DNA from: Candidatus Woesearchaeota archaeon | GTDB lineage: Archaea > Nanobdellota > Nanobdellia > Woesearchaeales > JACQSR01 | Direction of reading: 5' to 3' | Assembly (NCBI GenBank): GCA_016211215.1 | Contig: JACQSR010000014.1 | Location: 14,980 to 78,979, forward strand | DNA: 64,000 nt | Part shown: one piece after another, positions 452 through 57,283 of the stretch | Numbering within the stretch: position 1 is the stretch's first letter | How the letters are laid out: every line of letters begins with the position of its first letter | The notes under the pieces: generated by a model | What the model saw: the letters and a program-made list of their open reading frames with translations, nothing else | Databases searched by the model: none | What the model was told of the DNA's origin: nothing | Made by a program: the position numbers and the translations under genes

Positions 452-2215
452 ATGGCAAGAATAGCAGTAATACACAAGGAAAGGTGCAACCCAATCGGCT
501 GCGGAAATTACCTTTGCATCAGGGTGTGCCCTATAAACCGCAAGGGGGATGAATGCATTTATGTTGACACAGACAAAAAGGCAGGAATTGCGGAAGACCT
601 TTGCATAGGATGCATGATTTGCGTCCACAAATGCCCTTTTGATGCCATATCAATCATCAACCTGCCGCAGGAGCTAAAGCAGCAGCCCATACACCAGTTT
701 GGAAGAAACGGATTTCACCTTTACAATCTGCCAATCCCCATTTTCGGAAAGGTTGTTGGAATTTTGGGAGTAAACGGAATTGGGAAATCAACTGCAGTAA
801 AAATTCTTGCAGGGGCATTAAAGCCAAACTTCGGGAGCTATGAGAACAAAGGCGGTGCAAATTATGACGAGCTTATACACTTCTTCAAGGGCTCAGAAGC
901 GCAGAATTTCTTTGAAAAGATGAAGAAAGGGGAAATTACGGTGAGCTACAAGCCCCAGCAGGTTGAGCTTATACCCAAGGCTTCGAAAGGCAAGGTAAGG
1001 GAACTTCTGAAGAAGGTTGACCAGAAAAACGGATTTGAAAGTGTTGTAAAGGAGCTTGGGCTGGAGCATGTTTTAGACACGGATATAACTAAGATTTCAG
1101 GAGGCGAACTGCAGCGCGTCGCAATTGCCGCAACGGTGCTGAAGAAGGCCAGCGTTTATTTCTTTGACGAGCCTTCCTCGTTTCTCGACATAAAGCAGAG
1201 GATAAAGGTAAGCACGTTCATAAGAAATCTTGCGGACGAAAACACAGCCGTTATGGTGGTTGAGCATGACCTTATAATTCTTGATTACATGACGGACCTA
1301 ATCCACATAATGTACGGAAAAGAGGAGTCTTATGGTATTGTTGGCGGCGTAAAGGCAACAAGAACCGGAATGAATGCCTATCTTGATGGCTACATCAGGG
1401 AAGAGAATGTAAGGTTCAGGGACCACGCAATAAAGTTCCAGGAGAAACCGCCAATAGTCAGGAGGGGCGCCGAAACGCTTACGTCATGGGAAGGCATCAA
1501 AAAAAGGCTGGGCAATTTCAGCTTAAGCGCGGAGAACGGAACCATATTCAATGGCGATGTAATAGGCATAATGGGTGAAAACGGGACCGGAAAGACTACA
1601 TTCGTGAAGATTCTGGCAGGGGTGGAAGAGGCTGACGCAGGAAGGGTTGAAACAAAAATAAGGGTAAGCTACAAGCCGCAGTACATTGAAGCAGACCCTG
1701 AGGAGATTGTATCTTCCGCTTTGGGCGAAGCGGTTGCCAATTACGAAGTCCAGCTTATCAGGCCCCTAAGCATAAAGCCGCTGCTTTTGAGAAAATTAGG
1801 AGAATTAAGCGGGGGCGAACTCCAGAGGGTTGCGATTGCAAAATGCCTGAGCCAGGACGCAGATTTATACCTGCTGGACGAGCCGTCAGCTTATCTGGAC
1901 GCTGAGCAGCGCCTCAATGTTTCAAGCGTCATTGGAAATTTCATGGAGCTTAAGGGGAAGAGCGCGGTGGTTGTTGACCACGACCTTCTGTTCCTGGATT
2001 ACATTTCAAAGAGGCTTATCGTGTTCGGAGGCGTTCCGGGAAAAGAGGGAAACTGCAATGGGCCGTACGGGATGGAGGACGGCATGAGCAATTTCCTAAA
2101 AAGCCTGGGCATAAGCCTCAGGAGGGATGCAGAGAGCAGGCGCCCAAGAATCAACAAGCCGGGAAGCGTGAAAGACAGGCAACAGAAAAACTCCGGGAAG
2201 CTGTATTACGGTTAA
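452..2215 (+). CDS. abcE1: ABCE1 / RNase L inhibitor-like ribosome recycling ATPase (two 4Fe-4S ferredoxin motifs + twin ABC ATPase domains)
   Basis: N-terminal CX2CX2CX3CP and CIGCMICVHKCP iron-sulfur motifs; two Walker A sites (GVNGIGKST, GENGTGKTT); two LSGGELQRVAIA signature motifs. A TATA-like TTTATTAATA lies about 20 nt upstream of the ATG. Confidence 0.9.
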   Translation: MARIAVIHKERCNPIGCGNYLCIRVCPINRKGDECIYVDTDKKAGIAEDLCIGCMICVHKCPFDAISIINLPQELKQQPIHQFGRNGFHLYNLPIPIFGKVVGILGVNGIGKSTAVKILAGALKPNFGSYENKGGANYDELIHFFKGSEAQNFFEKMKKGEITVSYKPQQVELIPKASKGKVRELLKKVDQKNGFESVVKELGLEHVLDTDITKISGGELQRVAIAATVLKKASVYFFDEPSSFLDIKQRIKVSTFIRNLADENTAVMVVEHDLIILDYMTDLIHIMYGKEESYGIVGGVKATRTGMNAYLDGYIREENVRFRDHAIKFQEKPPIVRRGAETLTSWEGIKKRLGNFSLSAENGTIFNGDVIGIMGENGTGKTTFVKILAGVEEADAGRVETKIRVSYKPQYIEADPEEIVSSALGEAVANYEVQLIRPLSIKPLLLRKLGELSGGELQRVAIAKCLSQDADLYLLDEPSAYLDAEQRLNVSSVIGNFMELKGKSAVVVDHDLLFLDYISKRLIVFGGVPGKEGNCNGPYGMEDGMSNFLKSLGISLRRDAESRRPRINKPGSVKDRQQKNSGKLYYG

Positions 2216-2514
2216 ACCGGAATAATCTTGATGAATTTTTCTTTGGGCACAATCGCAACCTCCTTTTTGTCTTTGAGATTGTACTTCTCCACAAGCTCCT
2301 TAGGTATTCTCACACCCAGACTAGTACCCCATCGGGAGATTTTTGTGTTAAACCTTTTCATTTTCCTGTATTCCCTGGCGACCTCCTCCAACTGCCCCAT
2401 GTCGACTATTTCTTCATTGCATTTTTCGCATTTATAAAATCTGTATCTAACATCATCTGGTGTTTTTGCTGACATCTCTTTCATTCTTTTCCCGCAGCGA
2501 AAGCACTTTTTCAT
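2212..2514 (-). CDS. Antitoxin-like protein: N-terminal Zn-ribbon (CX2C...CX2C) fused to a C-terminal AbrB/SpoVT/MazE-like swapped-hairpin domain
   Basis: CFRCG...CEKC zinc-ribbon motif; C-terminal LGVRIPKELVEKYNLKDKKEV resembles the AbrB/MazE fold. It overlaps the upstream DUF4258-like gene by 4 nt and is a paralog of 23721..24059. Confidence 0.6.
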   Translation of the reverse strand: MKKCFRCGKRMKEMSAKTPDDVRYRFYKCEKCNEEIVDMGQLEEVAREYRKMKRFNTKISRWGTSLGVRIPKELVEKYNLKDKKEVAIVPKEKFIKIIPV

Positions 2515-2798
2515 CTTCTTCCTTTCGTCTCAATTGTTAATATTCTCATCGAACATCCCACGAGCTGCCCGATGCACACAACAGTGAACCTCTTGTAATC
2601 CTTGGACAGCCTGAGGTAATTCTTCCCAAACCGCTCCCTCCTTCCCCCTTTCAGGGTTGCCTCAATCATGTCCGGAGTTACTCCCCGCCGTATTGCCCTT
2701 ACAAAGGCGTGCCTCATTATCTGGATTTCGTACCCAGAGGGGTCGTTAATATCCTTTAATATATCTATATATCTTAGAATATATTTAAACCTTTTCAT
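2511..2798 (-). CDS. DUF4258-family toxin-like protein (probable start at the internal Met near MRHAFVRAIRRG)
   Basis: The HAxxRxxxRGV...I.EAL...G..-...VVC pattern is shared with the ORFs at 23512 and 4940. It lies upstream of, and translationally coupled to, the Zn-ribbon/AbrB gene. Confidence 0.5.
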   Translation of the reverse strand: MKRFKYILRYIDILKDINDPSGYEIQIMRHAFVRAIRRGVTPDMIEATLKGGRRERFGKNYLRLSKDYKRFTVVCIGQLVGCSMRILTIETKGRR

Positions 2799-3328
2799 TT
2801 TCTTTTGCGCTTCGGCTCCTTGTCAAAAAACACATAATACACAATCACGCCTCCAAGGGCAAGGACTGCTGCTGCAATGGCAATATTTCTGCCGCCAAAG
2901 GCTATGCTTTCCATGGCAGGCAGTATTGAATCAGTGCCTTCAACAACCCTCAGGTTTACTTTTATGGAAACTCCCGGAGATATCAAAAGAGCTCCCTGAT
3001 TCTCGCTGTAAAAGCTGATTTCTATTCTCTCCTCGCTGTTTTGTATTGCAGCGTCCATCGGTATTCTCAGCAGGAACTGTATTTTTTCCTCTGAATCTTC
3101 TTTAATCTGCCCTTCGGAAGGAATGGTAAAATAATCCGGATGGTTCTTTACTTTAATTCTATAGGCTACATCATGTTTTGAAGGATTGAATATTGTGAAC
3201 TGCGCTTTGGTTTCAGAACCGCGCTCTGCAGTCAAATCCAGCGAAGATGGAGAAACTGCTATGCTCTGGGCTAAAGAAGGGGCCGCAAAAACAAATAAAA
3301 TAAAGAAAAAAAGAAAAATTTTCATCAA
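2795..3328 (-). CDS. Secreted protein with N-terminal signal peptide and C-terminal TM anchor followed by a KRKRK tail
   Basis: N-terminal hydrophobic leader ending LAQS; C-terminal IAIAAAVLALGGVIVYYVFF then KEPKRKRK. Coupled to the downstream lamin-tail-domain (LTD) protein. Confidence 0.5.
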   Translation of the reverse strand: MMKIFLFFFILFVFAAPSLAQSIAVSPSSLDLTAERGSETKAQFTIFNPSKHDVAYRIKVKNHPDYFTIPSEGQIKEDSEEKIQFLLRIPMDAAIQNSEERIEISFYSENQGALLISPGVSIKVNLRVVEGTDSILPAMESIAFGGRNIAIAAAVLALGGVIVYYVFFDKEPKRKRK

Positions 3329-4614
3329 GACTGCACCGCAACCAGGCTTATAGTTCCAACGTAGTCGCCTGCCGGAGTTGACGAAGGGATTGTAACTCCG
3401 AACGAGAGCTCCTTCGTGGAAATGCTGCCGTGCACAAGCCCTATCGAGCTCCTAATGGGGCTTGTCGTCAATGTCTGGGGTGCAGCCAGCGATGGGCTAA
3501 ATGAATATTTTACATTTGCAACCGGTATCGATGCAGAGCCCGAGTTCAAGTCTGTTCCGGAGATTTCAGAATCTATAACCACATTGCCTATGTTTCTAAC
3601 CGTTACCTTGTCAGTGGTGCTGATGTTCTGGTCTCCGGGAATGCTGCATGACTGGCCTGAGCTTGAGGAGCAGATTAAAGACGATGCGTCTATCTCAAGT
3701 CCGATTAGGCTCAGGTATTCAAATGCAGCAGTTCTTGAACTGGAAGATTCAGAAGCCGCGGTAATTGTTATTGTATAGTTCCCTGGGTCTTCAAAAAAAT
3801 CTATTCCCACACTCCCTTCAAACTTTGCCGAGGTCGTGTTTATATCCATCGCCTTGGTAAGATTTACTGTCTCTGCACCAAGAATCGCCCTAACTGATGT
3901 TATGTCCGCAACCTGCCCGCTTGAGACAACCGCTGATAAAGGTATAAGCTTTTTGCCCTTAGGTTGTGGTGTAATCTGGATTCCTGATTTAGTTGCATCA
4001 TCATCAGGTATTATGTCAAAGCTGTCAATTGATGGCGATGCCTGGGTAACTGAAACAAGAAGCTGGATTGTGTTCCCCTCAATATATGAGGCGCTCTGAA
4101 GGTTGGGTGCTGCCGGGATGAAGTCCTGGGAGTTGTCTTGGGTATCCTGGGTGCGCTGCAGAGACTGCCCAGAAGAAGCACCAGGATGGGGTGAGCCCTC
4201 AAAAAGTCCAGCATCTATTCCGGCAGCAGACCCCCAACCGACTGCGTCTATGGCGGTACCATTTTCTATCAGCGCAATTCCGGAATCTGTGTTTGCCAGC
4301 GTGATTGCCTCCTCGTAGTCAGCATCAGGCCATGAGGGATTGTCTTTGCTTGAGGAAAAGCCCGCATCTGCAATAAGGAAATAGGATTCCGGCTGGATTA
4401 TTTTTCCTGACGGAATGGTTGCATCTGCCACTGAAGCCTCCGTTCGGATGATCCAGCCGGAGATGTCAACGGGCGCAGAACCGGGATTGTACAGCTCAAC
4501 TGCCTCCCCGCCGGATTCAGTGTTAACAGGGTCATAATAAACCTCGGATATCTGAACATTTGCCGCAACCGCAAGGCTTTGCATGACTAGCATTAAAGCC
4601 AATATTTTTTTCAT
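3325..4614 (-). CDS. Secreted lamin-tail-domain (LTD) surface protein. The ORF track starts at 4632; the signal peptide begins at the Met at 4614
   Basis: MKKILALMLVMQSLAVAAN signal peptide; ISEVYYDP...EAVELYNPGSAPVDISGWII resembles the LTD; Ser/Thr-rich C-terminal half. Confidence 0.55.
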   Translation of the reverse strand: MKKILALMLVMQSLAVAANVQISEVYYDPVNTESGGEAVELYNPGSAPVDISGWIIRTEASVADATIPSGKIIQPESYFLIADAGFSSSKDNPSWPDADYEEAITLANTDSGIALIENGTAIDAVGWGSAAGIDAGLFEGSPHPGASSGQSLQRTQDTQDNSQDFIPAAPNLQSASYIEGNTIQLLVSVTQASPSIDSFDIIPDDDATKSGIQITPQPKGKKLIPLSAVVSSGQVADITSVRAILGAETVNLTKAMDINTTSAKFEGSVGIDFFEDPGNYTITITAASESSSSRTAAFEYLSLIGLEIDASSLICSSSSGQSCSIPGDQNISTTDKVTVRNIGNVVIDSEISGTDLNSGSASIPVANVKYSFSPSLAAPQTLTTSPIRSSIGLVHGSISTKELSFGVTIPSSTPAGDYVGTISLVAVQS

Positions 4615-4683
4615 ATAAACACCTTCCGCCAAGAAAGAAAATGGATGAAGGGAGCATTAACACCTTAATAAACGTTGCGGTGA

Positions 4684-4702
4684 TTTTTCCGGAAGAAAAA
4701 CG
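4684..4702. repeat. 19-bp direct repeat TTTTTCCGGAAGAAAAACG, copy 1 (partner at 5284-5302, exactly 600 bp away), bracketing the DUF4258/DUF2283 pair
   Basis: Exact 19-mer seen twice; the core TTCCGGAA is palindromic. Confidence 0.7.
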
Positions 4703-4713
4703 GGATTTGAACT

Positions 4714-4923
4714 CTACACTGCCTCAAGAAGAACTTCCCGCTTGAGGACCTTGCTCGCACAAAGTATCTCGACACCCAACAGCTTGTTGTTTTTATCAAA
4801 GTCCAGGATTATGCTGTTGTTTAGCCGGACTGTCTTTTTCGATTCCCCCTTTTTTATAGGATACTCCAGATAAATGTATGCGGCATCAGTTTCCTTATCA
4901 TACTCTAATTTCATGGCGATCAT
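4714..4923 (-). CDS. DUF2283-family small protein (putative antitoxin partner of DUF4258)
   Basis: 70-aa protein with YDKETDAAYIYL...ILDFDKNNKLLGVEIL resembles DUF2283. It lies immediately downstream of the DUF4258-like ORF on the same strand. Confidence 0.55.
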   Translation of the reverse strand: MIAMKLEYDKETDAAYIYLEYPIKKGESKKTVRLNNSIILDFDKNNKLLGVEILCASKVLKREVLLEAV

Positions 4924-4939
4924 ATTACTGTAATCACCT

Positions 4940-5239
4940 TTATATAATTTTCCGTCTCGGCAAACACAATTGTAATGTGCCTGTTGTCAAAAACTGCGGA
5001 CTAAAGTCCACAGCGTGCAGTTTTTGAGCATGCTCAGAAATCGCCTTCTTACTCCGAACTGAAGTAGGGAGATTGCGAATGGCGATTTCTGACATTTCAA
5101 CAACACCCTCCGCCTCTTTTCTGCCTTCAAAAGATTTCTTCACGCAGGCAGGTTGCATAAGAACCTGTTCGACATGAAGGTATGTTACCCCTCTCTGGCC
5201 CATCCGTTTTAGCGCGTGGCTTGAATAAATTATGTTCAT
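4940..5239 (-). CDS. DUF4258-family toxin-like protein. Its C-terminal third overlaps the palindromic element at 5015-5107, so the true stop is uncertain
   Basis: N-terminus MNIIYSSHALKRMGQRGVTYLHVEQVL matches the HAxxRMxxRGI pattern of DUF4258. Confidence 0.5.
   Translation of the reverse strand: MNIIYSSHALKRMGQRGVTYLHVEQVLMQPACVKKSFEGRKEAEGVVEMSEIAIRNLPTSVRSKKAISEHAQKLHAVDFSPQFLTTGTLQLCLPRRKII
5015..5107. repeat. Palindromic structured element copy A (TTGAGCATGCTCAGAAAT / 12-bp stem / 54-nt interior / ATTTCTGACATTT)
   Basis: Shares an 18-mer and a 13-mer with copy B at 12831-12927 at identical 54-nt spacing. The stem extension covaries (CGCC/GGCG here). Confidence 0.6.
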
Positions 5240-16629: not shown

Positions 16630-16733
16630 TGGGCCTGGGAAGATTTGAACTCCCGATCTTCTGCTGTCTGATATCAGGGTTAGCTCCCTGATGTTAGAAG
16701 GCAGACGCCCTATCCAGGCTAGGCTACAGGCCC
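16630..16733 (-). tRNA. tRNA-Arg (anticodon UCU) with a ~29-nt intron at the canonical 37/38 position; CCA not encoded
   Basis: Acceptor GGGCCTG/CAGGCCC, D-arm GCCT-AGCCTGGATA-GGGC, anticodon stem TCTGC/GCAGA with loop CTTCTAA, T-arm GGGAG-TTCAAAT-CTTCC, discriminator A. Confidence 0.75.
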
Positions 16734-23222: not shown

Positions 23223-23511
23223 CCACTCTAAAATGAGTACACATCGAAAAGTTTATATATAAGTTAGGACTATAGAATGGTAACGAAAAAGGGTGGGGGT
23301 GGAAAGCTCTTCTGGAGCTTTAAAGGTCATTAAAGGTTCACGATTATATAAACACCTCTTTTCCCCGTGAATAGTTCCTCACGGAGCTATTTGCGGGGTT
23401 TCATGCTTCTAGAAGGCTTATTTGGTCTTATTTCTGGCTTAAGTGTTATAATCTCAATTTGGAAATATATAAATATAACTTGTTCTTATCTATACGTATA
23501 GGTGCGCATAA

Positions 23512-23724
23512 ATGCTTACAAAAGAGGATTTACTAATCACAAAGCATGCACAGGATAAAATGAACATTGAGGGAATCTCGGTAACACAAATAATAGAGGC
23601 GTTGGAAAGGGGCTCGAAGTTCGAGCAGACGGAGGGGTTGTTAAGCGTTTACAGATATTTTTCAGTTGCATACAGGAGAATAGACACAAAATACATAATA
23701 AAAACCGTGTTTGTAAACAGGTGA
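23512..23724 (+). CDS. DUF4258-family toxin-like protein (paralog of 2511..2798)
   Basis: ITKHAQDKMNIEGISVTQIIEAL...YIIKTVF; overlaps the downstream gene by 4 nt. Confidence 0.55.
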   Translation: MLTKEDLLITKHAQDKMNIEGISVTQIIEALERGSKFEQTEGLLSVYRYFSVAYRRIDTKYIIKTVFVNR

Positions 23725-24059
23725 TAGGAATGAAATGCGTATCATGCGGTGAATCGGAAATGGTCAAAAAGAAAGTCGAATACAACCAGTTTGGAATTCA
23801 TTTTGGGGATTATGATGCAATTGTATGCCCAAAATGCAATGAGACGATTTTTGAAGGACAGGTGAGTGAACAGATAGAAAAAAAGGCAAAGGAGCTGGGG
23901 ATTTGGGGATTGTCGAGAAAGACAAAGATTGGAACTTCCGGTTCTTCCCTCGACGTGAAAATTCCAAAGCAAATTGCAGAATTCCTGCACCTAAAAAAGG
24001 GCCAGGAGGTCATTATTGAGCCTGCAGGGAAGAATAAGATTGAGGTTTCGGTAGTGTGA
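23721..24059 (+). CDS. Antitoxin-like Zn-ribbon::AbrB/SpoVT-fold protein (paralog of 2212..2514)
   Basis: CVSCG...CPKC plus C-terminal SLDVKIPKQIAEFLHLKKGQEV; same architecture and gene order as the 2.2-2.8 kb locus. Confidence 0.6.
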   Translation: MIGMKCVSCGESEMVKKKVEYNQFGIHFGDYDAIVCPKCNETIFEGQVSEQIEKKAKELGIWGLSRKTKIGTSGSSLDVKIPKQIAEFLHLKKGQEVIIEPAGKNKIEVSVV

Positions 24060-45710: not shown

Positions 45711-45887
45711 ATAAGTGTCCCCTGCAGTTCCGAGAAATGTTATTGATGAAATTTTGGCCCCCGAGAGGCGAGTATTCTGCGAAGTTAATAAATTTTTTGA
45801 TTTGGGTTGCCCATACCCTCACTTGTAAACTGATGTAAAGCGTGTATTAAAGCAACCTTTATAAGGCATTATTTACTCTACCATACC

Positions 45888-46158
45888 GCAGGCTAGGTTG
45901 GGAAGATAGCACTCTCCTGTCACTCCAGACGTGCTTAGGGAGGACTGAATGCCGGAATGAGGGTGCATCAGATTGCATTGGTCTTGGCCTGGACGAAGAC
46001 GCTTTGTCCTGCTGGGCTGATGCTTCTGGGAAACGTGTCAGGTCAGGAATGAAGCAGCACTAACCTTTTGCATTGGTGTCTTCAGGGTTGCAGAGCCGAG
46101 GAAAGGACAAGGCAAACCATTGCAGTTTGGTGTATTCGACTTCCGGATGCCTGCACTT
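45888..46158 (+). ncRNA. Signal recognition particle (7S) RNA candidate
   Basis: Helix-8 signature GUCAGGUCAGGAAUGAAGCAGCAC (46036-46060); Alu-domain-like CCUGUCACUCCAGAC; 5' GCAGGC pairs with 3' GCCUGC; followed by an oligo-T (TTTTATTT) terminator; TATA CTTTATAAGG about 25 nt upstream. Confidence 0.55.
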
Positions 46159-56140: not shown

Positions 56141-57283
56141 CTATTTATTTTGATGCAATTCTTCGCATTTCTTCGCAATCGCAGTTCCCATATCGGAGCA
56201 TTTGCTTGAGCCGCCCATGTCCTTGGTCTTAACTTTTCCATCTCTGATAACTTCCTGGACTGCGTTTAGCATCAGGTCTGCAGACTTCTGCATTTTCAGC
56301 TCCGAAAGCATTAGAGAGCCAGCCCATATTGTTGCAAGGGGATTTGCAACATTTAATCCCCTGTACTTTGGAGCAGAGCCGTGAATGGGCTCGAACATTG
56401 AGATTCCATCCGGATTAATGTTGCCTCCGGGAGCCAGCCCAAGACCACCCTGAATCATTGCCCCCAGGTCAGTTATAATGTCCCCGAACATGTTTGGCGC
56501 AACAACCATCTGGAACCACTCTGGATTTTTCACAAACCACATTGTGATTGCATCAACATAATTAAAGTCATATTCTATGCCGGGATACTTTTTCGCAACC
56601 TCGTCAACGGTTTCGCGCCAGAAGGAATAAACGCTGTCCAGTACATTTGCCTTGTCAACTGCGGTAACCTTTGTCTTTTTGTTTTTCCTTGCGCGCTCGA
56701 ATGCATATTCAATCACGCGCCTGGAGCCTTTTTTTGACAAAACCCCGATTTGATACGCTATTTCGGAGCCCTGCGTGTCAATGTCGAGGCCGAATTTAAC
56801 GCTGTACAGAGACCTTATGACTTCCAGCTCCTGCTTTGAGTTTCCAATCTTTGCCCTGTTTCCGATTCCAACGTAAAAATCCTCGGTGTTTTCCCTTACA
56901 ACTTCAAAGTTTATGTCCTTCGGCGTTTTGTTCTTTAACGGGCATTCAACACCATCCAATAATTTAATTGGCCTAAGGTTGACATACTGGTCAAAATAAA
57001 ACCTTGTTTTCAGCAGAATTCCTTTCTCAAGAATTCCGGGCTTAACGCGAGGGTCTCCAAGCGCTCCAAGATAAATGGCTTTGCAGGTCTTTTTGATTTC
57101 CTTTAGCGTGTCTTCAGTTATAAGCTCCCCGGTTTTGAGGTATCTGTCCGCGCCATTGTCATACCTAACCCATTCCACTTCAAAATTATGGAGCTCGGAA
57201 ACCTTGTTGATTACCTTTACGCCCTGCTCAATTATCTCAGGCCCAATGCCGTCGCCCGGCATCAGCGCAATTCTGTATTTCAT
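56141..57283 (-). CDS. leuB: 3-isopropylmalate dehydrogenase
   Basis: IDH/IMDH family motifs (NLFGDIITD, GSAPK); 380 aa; sits in the leu cluster. Confidence 0.8.

Follow-up and report, generated by a model that had tools for sequence, protein, structure and literature searches.

The 64,000-nucleotide (nt) stretch analyzed here, referred to as the window, belongs to a Candidatus Woesearchaeota contig of 79,690 bp (NCBI locus tags HY638_), and it carries at two loci a two-gene module in which a small gene of the DUF4258 type, encoding a putative toxin, is followed by a larger gene whose product, a putative antitoxin, combines four cysteines with an AbrB-type domain. In a six-frame listing of open reading frames (ORFs), locus A lies on the minus strand, with the small ORF (toxin A, 95 amino acids (aa) at most) at 2511-2798 and the large ORF (antitoxin A, 100 aa) at 2212-2514. 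Locus B lies on the plus strand, with the small ORF (toxin B, 70 aa) at 23512-23724 and the large ORF (antitoxin B) ending at 24059, which encodes 109 aa if read from the ATG at 23730 and 112 aa if read from a GTG at 23721. Hidden Markov models (HMMs) of both families found exactly two copies of each partner within the 64 kb. The shared architecture and the toxin-first order, both proposed in the first-pass annotation, were confirmed at the two loci, and the pairing is kept across many genomes and in different contexts. The 4-nt overlap that had been claimed for both gene pairs held only at locus A, where the antitoxin ATG lies on the toxin stop codon in a true ATGA overlap; at locus B it requires the GTG at 23721. 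Because all antitoxin B homologs begin at an ATG equivalent to 23730, the locus B junction is probably a 5-nt spacer, with GGTGA ahead of it, rather than an overlap.

The two large proteins are homologs of one another, with 31% identity at E=7e-12. An alignment of 26 homologs from both families demonstrated that four cysteines are invariant (C3, C6, C33 and C36 in antitoxin B, counted from the ATG at 23730; C4, C7, C29 and C32 in antitoxin A), as are G71, L74 and P79 (B numbering) of a G-x-S-L-x-V-x-I-P-K loop, which reads SLGVRIPK in antitoxin A and SLDVKIPK in antitoxin B. Conservation of the cysteines and of the G..L.V.IP pattern in these homologs, together with the identity between A and B, rules out a chance pattern or chance ORFs. 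A search of 1.8 billion cluster representatives recovered 637 relatives at E ≤ 1e-3, and the cysteine pairs and the AbrB loop were both present in at least 52 of the best 149. For the N-terminal half, the five best matches found by Foldseek in the Protein Data Bank (PDB) for antitoxin B, as modeled by AlphaFold2 (pLDDT 82), were all to the N-terminal domain of E. coli MqsA (3gn5, 3ga8, 3hi2), with a probability of 1.00. Against the isolated-domain entries 3ga8 and 3hi2 the target-normalized TM score was 0.63-0.70, at a sequence identity of ~26%. This superposition on the MqsA zinc domain bears out the YgiT/MqsA-like zinc ribbon that had been read from the sequence. The NCBIfam MqsA model TIGR03830 was matched by 13 of the 26 members and YgiT_finger by 10, all under the whole-protein cut-off; the TIGR03830 matches fall short (~20 bits for the whole protein vs a cut-off of 61.8) because the helix-turn-helix (HTH) half is absent.

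The C-terminal half of the large protein had no HTH match, and matched AbrB/MazE instead. Against PF04014 (AbrB/MazE/SpoVT), antitoxin A scored 34.1 bits, above the cut-off of 24.7, with the domain spanning residues 59-100; antitoxin B scored 19.2 bits, below the cut-off, and 15 of the 26 family members were matched. When the family profile was compared with the PDB, positions 65-106 matched the AbrB/MazE-type antitoxin 7d2n_E (E=5.6e-5) and E. coli MazE (E ~1e-3), in agreement with the AbrB/MazE-like C-terminal domain described earlier; searches of the PDB with single protein sequences returned only noise, and profiles were required. The Foldseek and profile searches that the first-pass annotation had recommended as a check thus led from the large partner to antitoxin-type domains in both halves, indicating that the protein is a real chimera in which an MqsA N-terminal domain is joined to an AbrB/MazE DNA-binding domain. 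The NCBI annotation of antitoxin A begins at M11 (90 aa) and loses the first conserved CxxC; the true start is at 2514.

The small proteins belong to DUF4258 (PF14076). Toxin B matches this family at 27.4 bits and passes the gathering score of 25, whereas toxin A alone reaches 14.6 bits, under the 25-bit cut-off. We assign toxin A to DUF4258 because its family members match, rather than from its own score: 20 of its 28 relatives match PF14076 at E ≤ 0.01 (best 8e-7), and among the toxin B relatives 21 of 23 match the model. BLASTP found no similarity between toxins A and B, but an hhalign comparison of the two profiles aligned them over their full length (E=1.6e-4, probability 50%) with the His-Ala motif in register, and several family A toxins also match the family B HMM. 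The earlier description of both small partners as DUF4258-like is therefore sound for toxin B by its Pfam score, and for toxin A, which is below threshold alone, through its family and the profile alignment. The HA...RGI-type core that had been noticed by eye is present in both proteins, as HAFVRAIRRGV in toxin A and HAQDKMNIEGI in toxin B. Within it, H12 of toxin B does not vary and at least 90% of sequences conserve K16, and H30, R34 and R38 of toxin A are invariant or nearly so. These residues fit the "H, [KR]" signature published for Ntox49 (Zhang et al. 2012, PMC3482391), which a 2026 preprint equates with DUF4258 and places within the BECR ribonucleases (RNases), in their colicin-like branch. 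The AlphaFold2 model of toxin A (pLDDT 83.6) shows two helices and, after them, a sheet of four strands. Toxin and antitoxin could not be told apart by their isoelectric points.

Examination of the DNA upstream of the modules revealed a promoter layout common to the two families, with a different hexamer in each. In family B promoters an archaeal TATA box (TTTAAATA or TTTATATA) lies ~35 nt before the ATG and is followed by two or three TACGTA-like hexamers; family A promoters have the same geometry with GATATC-like hexamers, the last of which adjoins the start codon (GATATT ATG GAC). The distance between neighboring boxes is almost always 10 bp, or else 20 bp. We counted the hexamers in non-redundant promoters (24 of family B and 43 of family A), using the rest of the same loci as background. 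TACGTA occurred 20 times in the family B promoters, or 17 per kb vs 0.03 per kb elsewhere (~600-fold), and was absent from the family A promoters; GATATC occurred 38 times in the family A promoters, or 18 per kb vs 0.3 per kb elsewhere (~60-fold), and was absent from those of family B. The DNA-contacting loop of the antitoxin also differs by family, reading RWGxSLGVRIPK in A and TSGSSLDVKIPK in B.

At module B, the promoter and candidate operator together occupy 23466-23508 on the plus strand: a TATA-like TATATAAATA at ~23466-23475 is followed in 10-bp phase by TTCTTA (23483-23488), TACGTA (23493-23498) and TGCGCA (23503-23508), and the middle box forms the center of a perfect 12-bp palindrome, CTATACGTATAG, at 23490-23501. 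At module A, the ancestral promoter and operator (2748-2789, minus strand) now lie inside the 95-aa ORF, with the TATA box TTTAAATA at 2789-2782 and four degenerate boxes in 10-bp phase, ATATTC (2782-2777), GATATA (2773-2768), GATATA (2765-2760) and GATATT (2753-2748). A dimeric AbrB-type autorepressor would require phased palindromic half-sites on one face of the helix, placed between TATA box and start codon as these are, and we regard them as candidate operators on the basis of their sequence and spacing. There were no comparable hexamer arrays elsewhere in the 64 kb, save one weak B-like pair at 10-bp spacing (TTCGCATTTCTTCGCA, 56162-56177), which is probably due to chance. A sigma-70 promoter scan was set aside as inapplicable to an archaeon.

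The two genes stay together in other genomes. When metagenomes were scanned with the profile of toxin A, 54 loci were recovered, and a zinc-AbrB gene lies immediately downstream of the toxin A homolog in 49 of them; four of the remaining five end within ~90 nt of the toxin gene, and the fifth (L094) contains a truncated toxin fragment only. The antitoxin B profile, made from the family B alignment only, gave 33 loci in a scan of one genome per species. An intact toxin B homolog ends a few nt upstream in 26 of these, two have a C-terminal toxin remnant only, and five are without a toxin. The antitoxin gene of a divergent relative, P0256, also lies 4 nt behind a DUF4258 gene. Flanking genes vary from locus to locus, and include a glycosidase and a histone, sugar epimerases, a ribosomal protein and RNase P, and a serpin with a reverse transcriptase; because these neighbors differ between loci, we conclude that the gene pair moves as a unit. 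The loss of toxins with retention of orphan antitoxins is typical of toxin-antitoxin (TA) systems. In loci L024 and L038 (~1890-1990) the C-terminal toxin B remnants lie upstream of intact antitoxin genes, such that the toxins have decayed and the antitoxins have been kept.

Several individual loci deserve mention. In L028, a gene for a HepT-like HEPN RNase toxin (1550-1972, plus strand; PF01934, E=2e-27) directly precedes a zinc-AbrB gene that has no DUF4258 partner, which represents either a TA island with an orphan antitoxin or an exchange of the toxin partner. In L006, from another DPANN genome, the gene directly downstream of a family A module encodes a 599-aa reverse transcriptase (RVT_1 plus HTH_40; 3307-5106, minus strand). 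The 33 antitoxin B loci carry DPANN or unassigned-archaeon names, except for some bulk-submitted metagenome-assembled genomes (MAGs) labeled "uncultured Methanosarcinales archaeon" (L009, L011, L017, L018, L022, L025, L029, L031 and L033). Identity between the modules in these MAGs and those in Woesearchaeota and Nanoarchaeota MAGs is 48-73%, and the Methanosarcinales labels seem to be generic names from bulk submission and not actual taxonomy.

Comparison of the two copies in the window bears on how they came to be there. Each copy is 60-76% identical to relatives in other genomes, and only 31% identical (antitoxin) or without a BLASTP alignment (toxin) to the other copy. Local duplication or recent expansion was rejected on this ground, each copy being far closer to relatives elsewhere than to its companion. 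Judging from these sequence identities, the two copies are old lineages that have been maintained separately. The suggestion that two copies point to an expanding family finds no support in this comparison where local expansion is concerned: the antitoxins share 31% identity, and the operator motifs differ.

To quantify selection at locus A, we made Nei-Gojobori counts of the proportions of nonsynonymous (pN) and synonymous (pS) differences against a syntenic ortholog, L041, which has the same surface-protein genes upstream and the convergent ABCE1-like gene downstream (in the window, the ORF at 452-2215, which we take from its sequence to be ABCE1-like). Values were pN 0.148 and pS 0.708 for the toxin A core, pN 0.17 and pS 0.80 for antitoxin A, and pN 0.10 and pS 0.67 for ABCE1. 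Both genes of locus A thus encode proteins that are kept by purifying selection. Where toxin A starts is a separate matter. In the window and in L041 alike, the family's usual ATG is replaced by AAC (2747-2745 in the window) and the boxes of locus A are all degenerate, and the TATA box is located inside the 95-aa ORF. Because the usual start is lost and the TATA box lies within the ORF, toxin A would have to be made from M1 (2798) or from M28 (2717). Use of M1, which lies across the stop codon of the gene upstream, would require read-through transcription; M28, the ATG from which NCBI calls a 68-aa protein, would remove the first strand of the fold. The 95-aa start is doubtful, and the first 80 nt of the ORF (2717-2798, minus strand) look like promoter DNA captured as coding sequence, or like the product of a mis-called start. 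In codons 1-27 the pS is 0.40 vs 0.71 in the core, which, over 27 codons only, hints that this segment is still constrained as DNA.

We consider it probable that each locus is a type II TA module with an autorepressing chimeric antitoxin. According to this model, the first gene would encode a small DUF4258/Ntox49 protein, predicted to be a BECR (RelE/colicin-like) RNase acting through its conserved His and Arg/Lys residues. The MqsA-type zinc domain of the second protein would bind and neutralize this toxin, as MqsA does with MqsR; we assign it that role because of the structural match to MqsA, the toxin-first order and the published DUF4258-MqsA fusions. The AbrB/MazE swapped-hairpin domain would dimerize, bind the phased hexamers between TATA box and start codon (GATATC-like for module A, TACGTA-like for module B) and repress the operon. 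Loss or degradation of the antitoxin would then free the toxin, and the distinct operators would keep co-resident modules from cross-regulating. The loci have two general features of type II TA systems: small co-oriented genes that overlap or abut and that are paired in variable contexts, and, at the sequence level, a DNA-binding antitoxin whose own promoter holds repeats of a candidate operator.

Several observations weigh against this interpretation. Matches to the toxin A model in the PDB take in several RelE structures as well as HigB, MqsR and one CdiA-CT toxin, but they are weak (E ≥ 0.1, TM ~0.4), and because the matches reach only this level, the modeled fold is compatible with BECR without demonstrating it. 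The toxin profiles found no solved sequence relative in the PDB. The DUF4258 family, with ~6,000 Pfam members, is without experimental characterization and has been termed undescribed (Gerdes 2025, PMC11980606). The AbrB half of the antitoxin B monomer model had no structural match in Foldseek, which would be expected of a fold that forms only on dimerization; the AbrB assignment comes from the sequence profiles. A conserved Shine-Dalgarno-like GGTG/GAGG overlaps the third box of module B, which may thus be a Shine-Dalgarno element rather than an operator. Collections of plasmids, phages, IMG/VR and PADLOC gave no matches, with no link to mobile elements or defense islands, and PHROGs returned unnamed families only. 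In addition, the locus A copy may be regulated differently, or be attenuated.

This last point can be extended to a possible, if somewhat doubtful, account in which locus A is a domesticated or attenuated copy whose activity and autoregulation differ from those of the ancestral module. The change of ATG to AAC at 2747-2745 and the degeneration of every GATATC box, both shared with the syntenic ortholog L041, would fit such a history, as would the lower pS in codons 1-27, which suggests constraint at the DNA level, and the 68-aa form called by NCBI. However, the toxin A frame is open through ~80 nt of AT-rich DNA in both orthologs, an ATG is present at the upstream gene's stop codon in both, the core of toxin A is under strong purifying selection, and the codon comparison covers 27 codons only. 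An attenuated locus A would qualify the TA interpretation without excluding it. A different reading makes the pair a non-toxic regulatory unit, with the zinc-AbrB protein as an ordinary transcription factor acting on the hexamers and the DUF4258 protein as its co-regulator or modulator. Direct sequence support, in the form of the operators, exists only for the DNA-binding side, the literature records no demonstration of toxicity for a DUF4258 protein, and two genomes have inherited the module stably and in synteny at locus A. Nevertheless, DUF4258 overlaps Ntox49, the toxic tip of secreted polymorphic toxins, and retains its H/[KR] signature; decay of toxins with retained antitoxins and scattered contexts is typical of addiction modules; and the operators in the window occur only at the module's own promoter. 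We regard a non-toxic pair as unlikely. The relationship to Ntox49, which is known at the C-termini of secreted polymorphic toxins with an immunity gene downstream, also raises the idea that the modules are remnant toxin/immunity cassettes of such a system, a stand-alone tip with its immunity gene. We rejected this as highly improbable, as neither a trafficking domain nor RHS or filamentous repeats nor a larger toxin gene lie in the vicinity, the immunity partner described in the literature is Imm22 rather than a DNA-binding protein, and the downstream protein has a transcription-factor domain and operators of its own.

Taken as a TA module, the system shares features with several known ones. 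Like MqsR/MqsA (YgiU/YgiT of E. coli), it is toxin-first, its antitoxin has an N-terminal zinc domain with two CxxC motifs that superposes on MqsA residues 1-65 and a C-terminal domain for DNA binding and dimerization, its toxin is predicted to belong to the BECR superfamily, and its promoter contains palindromic candidate operators. The DNA-binding domain, however, is an AbrB/MazE swapped hairpin rather than the XRE HTH of MqsA, the toxin is of the DUF4258/Ntox49 type (colicin-like branch) rather than MqsR, and the host is an archaeon with a TATA-box promoter. By analogy the module would work like MqsRA, yet it fails two features that define that system, the HTH domain and the MqsR partner. 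With MazE, PemI and AbrB-type VapB (PF04014) it shares, by profile, the DNA-binding fold, and those antitoxins normally autoregulate by way of operators that are palindromic or repeated. Their AbrB domain is N-terminal and followed by a disordered neutralizing tail, whereas here it is C-terminal and a folded zinc domain takes the place of the tail; their gene order is antitoxin-first with a MazF, PIN or Doc toxin, whereas here a DUF4258 toxin comes first.

A further precedent is found among published computational predictions. DUF4258 has been listed as a TA toxin, with 17 DUF4258-MqsA fusions (Gerdes 2025, PMC11980606), and the partners of E. coli DUF4258 proteins are strictly downstream (PMC10790755). 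Those modules pair a toxin of this family with a downstream zinc-domain partner of the same class and, like ours, are computational predictions, but their partners are named MqsA, which implies an HTH, in place of the AbrB/MazE C-terminal domain found here, and the family described here is named only in DPANN archaea (apart from some MAGs labeled otherwise). The present module belongs to this computationally defined DUF4258 TA group. Literature searches found no paper on an antitoxin combining a zinc ribbon with AbrB, and Makarova 2009 mentions the YgiT zinc finger only with HTH, in agreement with the first-pass annotation, which did not recognize the combination as described; the association of DUF4258 with MqsA-type proteins is itself already published (PMC11980606), and only the swap of the antitoxin's DNA-binding domain is new. 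In P0264, a metagenomic relative, the C-terminal domain attached to this MqsA-type zinc domain is of the UPF0175 type and not AbrB; this second case of an exchanged DNA-binding domain suggests that the zinc domain stays constant and that the DNA-binding domain can be swapped. Most of the seemingly zinc-only relatives with unusual C-termini were frameshifted or truncated AbrB proteins and were rejected as new architectures, and P0264 is the only one that looks like a real swap.

Two RNA genes were also identified in the window. An archaeal signal recognition particle RNA is located at 45886-46156 on the plus strand (full-length match, 105 bits); like the ABCE1-like ORF, it agrees with the contig's assignment to a Woesearchaeota archaeon. 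An Rfam tRNA match at 16630-16733 on the minus strand spans 104 nt (54.7 bits) and has no counterpart in ARAGORN; it is probably an intron-containing archaeal tRNA.

The shuffling of DNA-binding domains among antitoxins is an established principle. The fusion described here is an undescribed but unsurprising recombination of known parts, and the current picture of TA biology is unchanged by it. Two public annotations are affected, that of antitoxin A, which lacked its first CxxC and is corrected here, and that of toxin A, whose start is ambiguous. We tentatively put forward, as an idea with rather less than an even chance of being correct, that the MqsA-type zinc domain is a portable neutralizer of colicin-like BECR RNases that has been mounted on HTH in bacteria, on AbrB/MazE in the DPANN-centered family and on a UPF0175-type domain in at least one relative, P0264, and that the lineages arising after the swap changed the operator half-site (GATATC vs TACGTA) and kept the geometry of TATA box, ~35 nt, ATG, and boxes every 10 bp. 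If this is true, a very small genome could keep two copies side by side without cross-talk. The modules carry a specific and testable regulatory prediction, that of two paralogous repressors whose hexamer specificities are reciprocal within the same promoter layout, and they would offer a compact system for studying how AbrB-type domains are re-targeted, whether the MqsA zinc domain is a general neutralizer of BECR toxins, and what role TA modules may play in the very small genomes of DPANN archaea.

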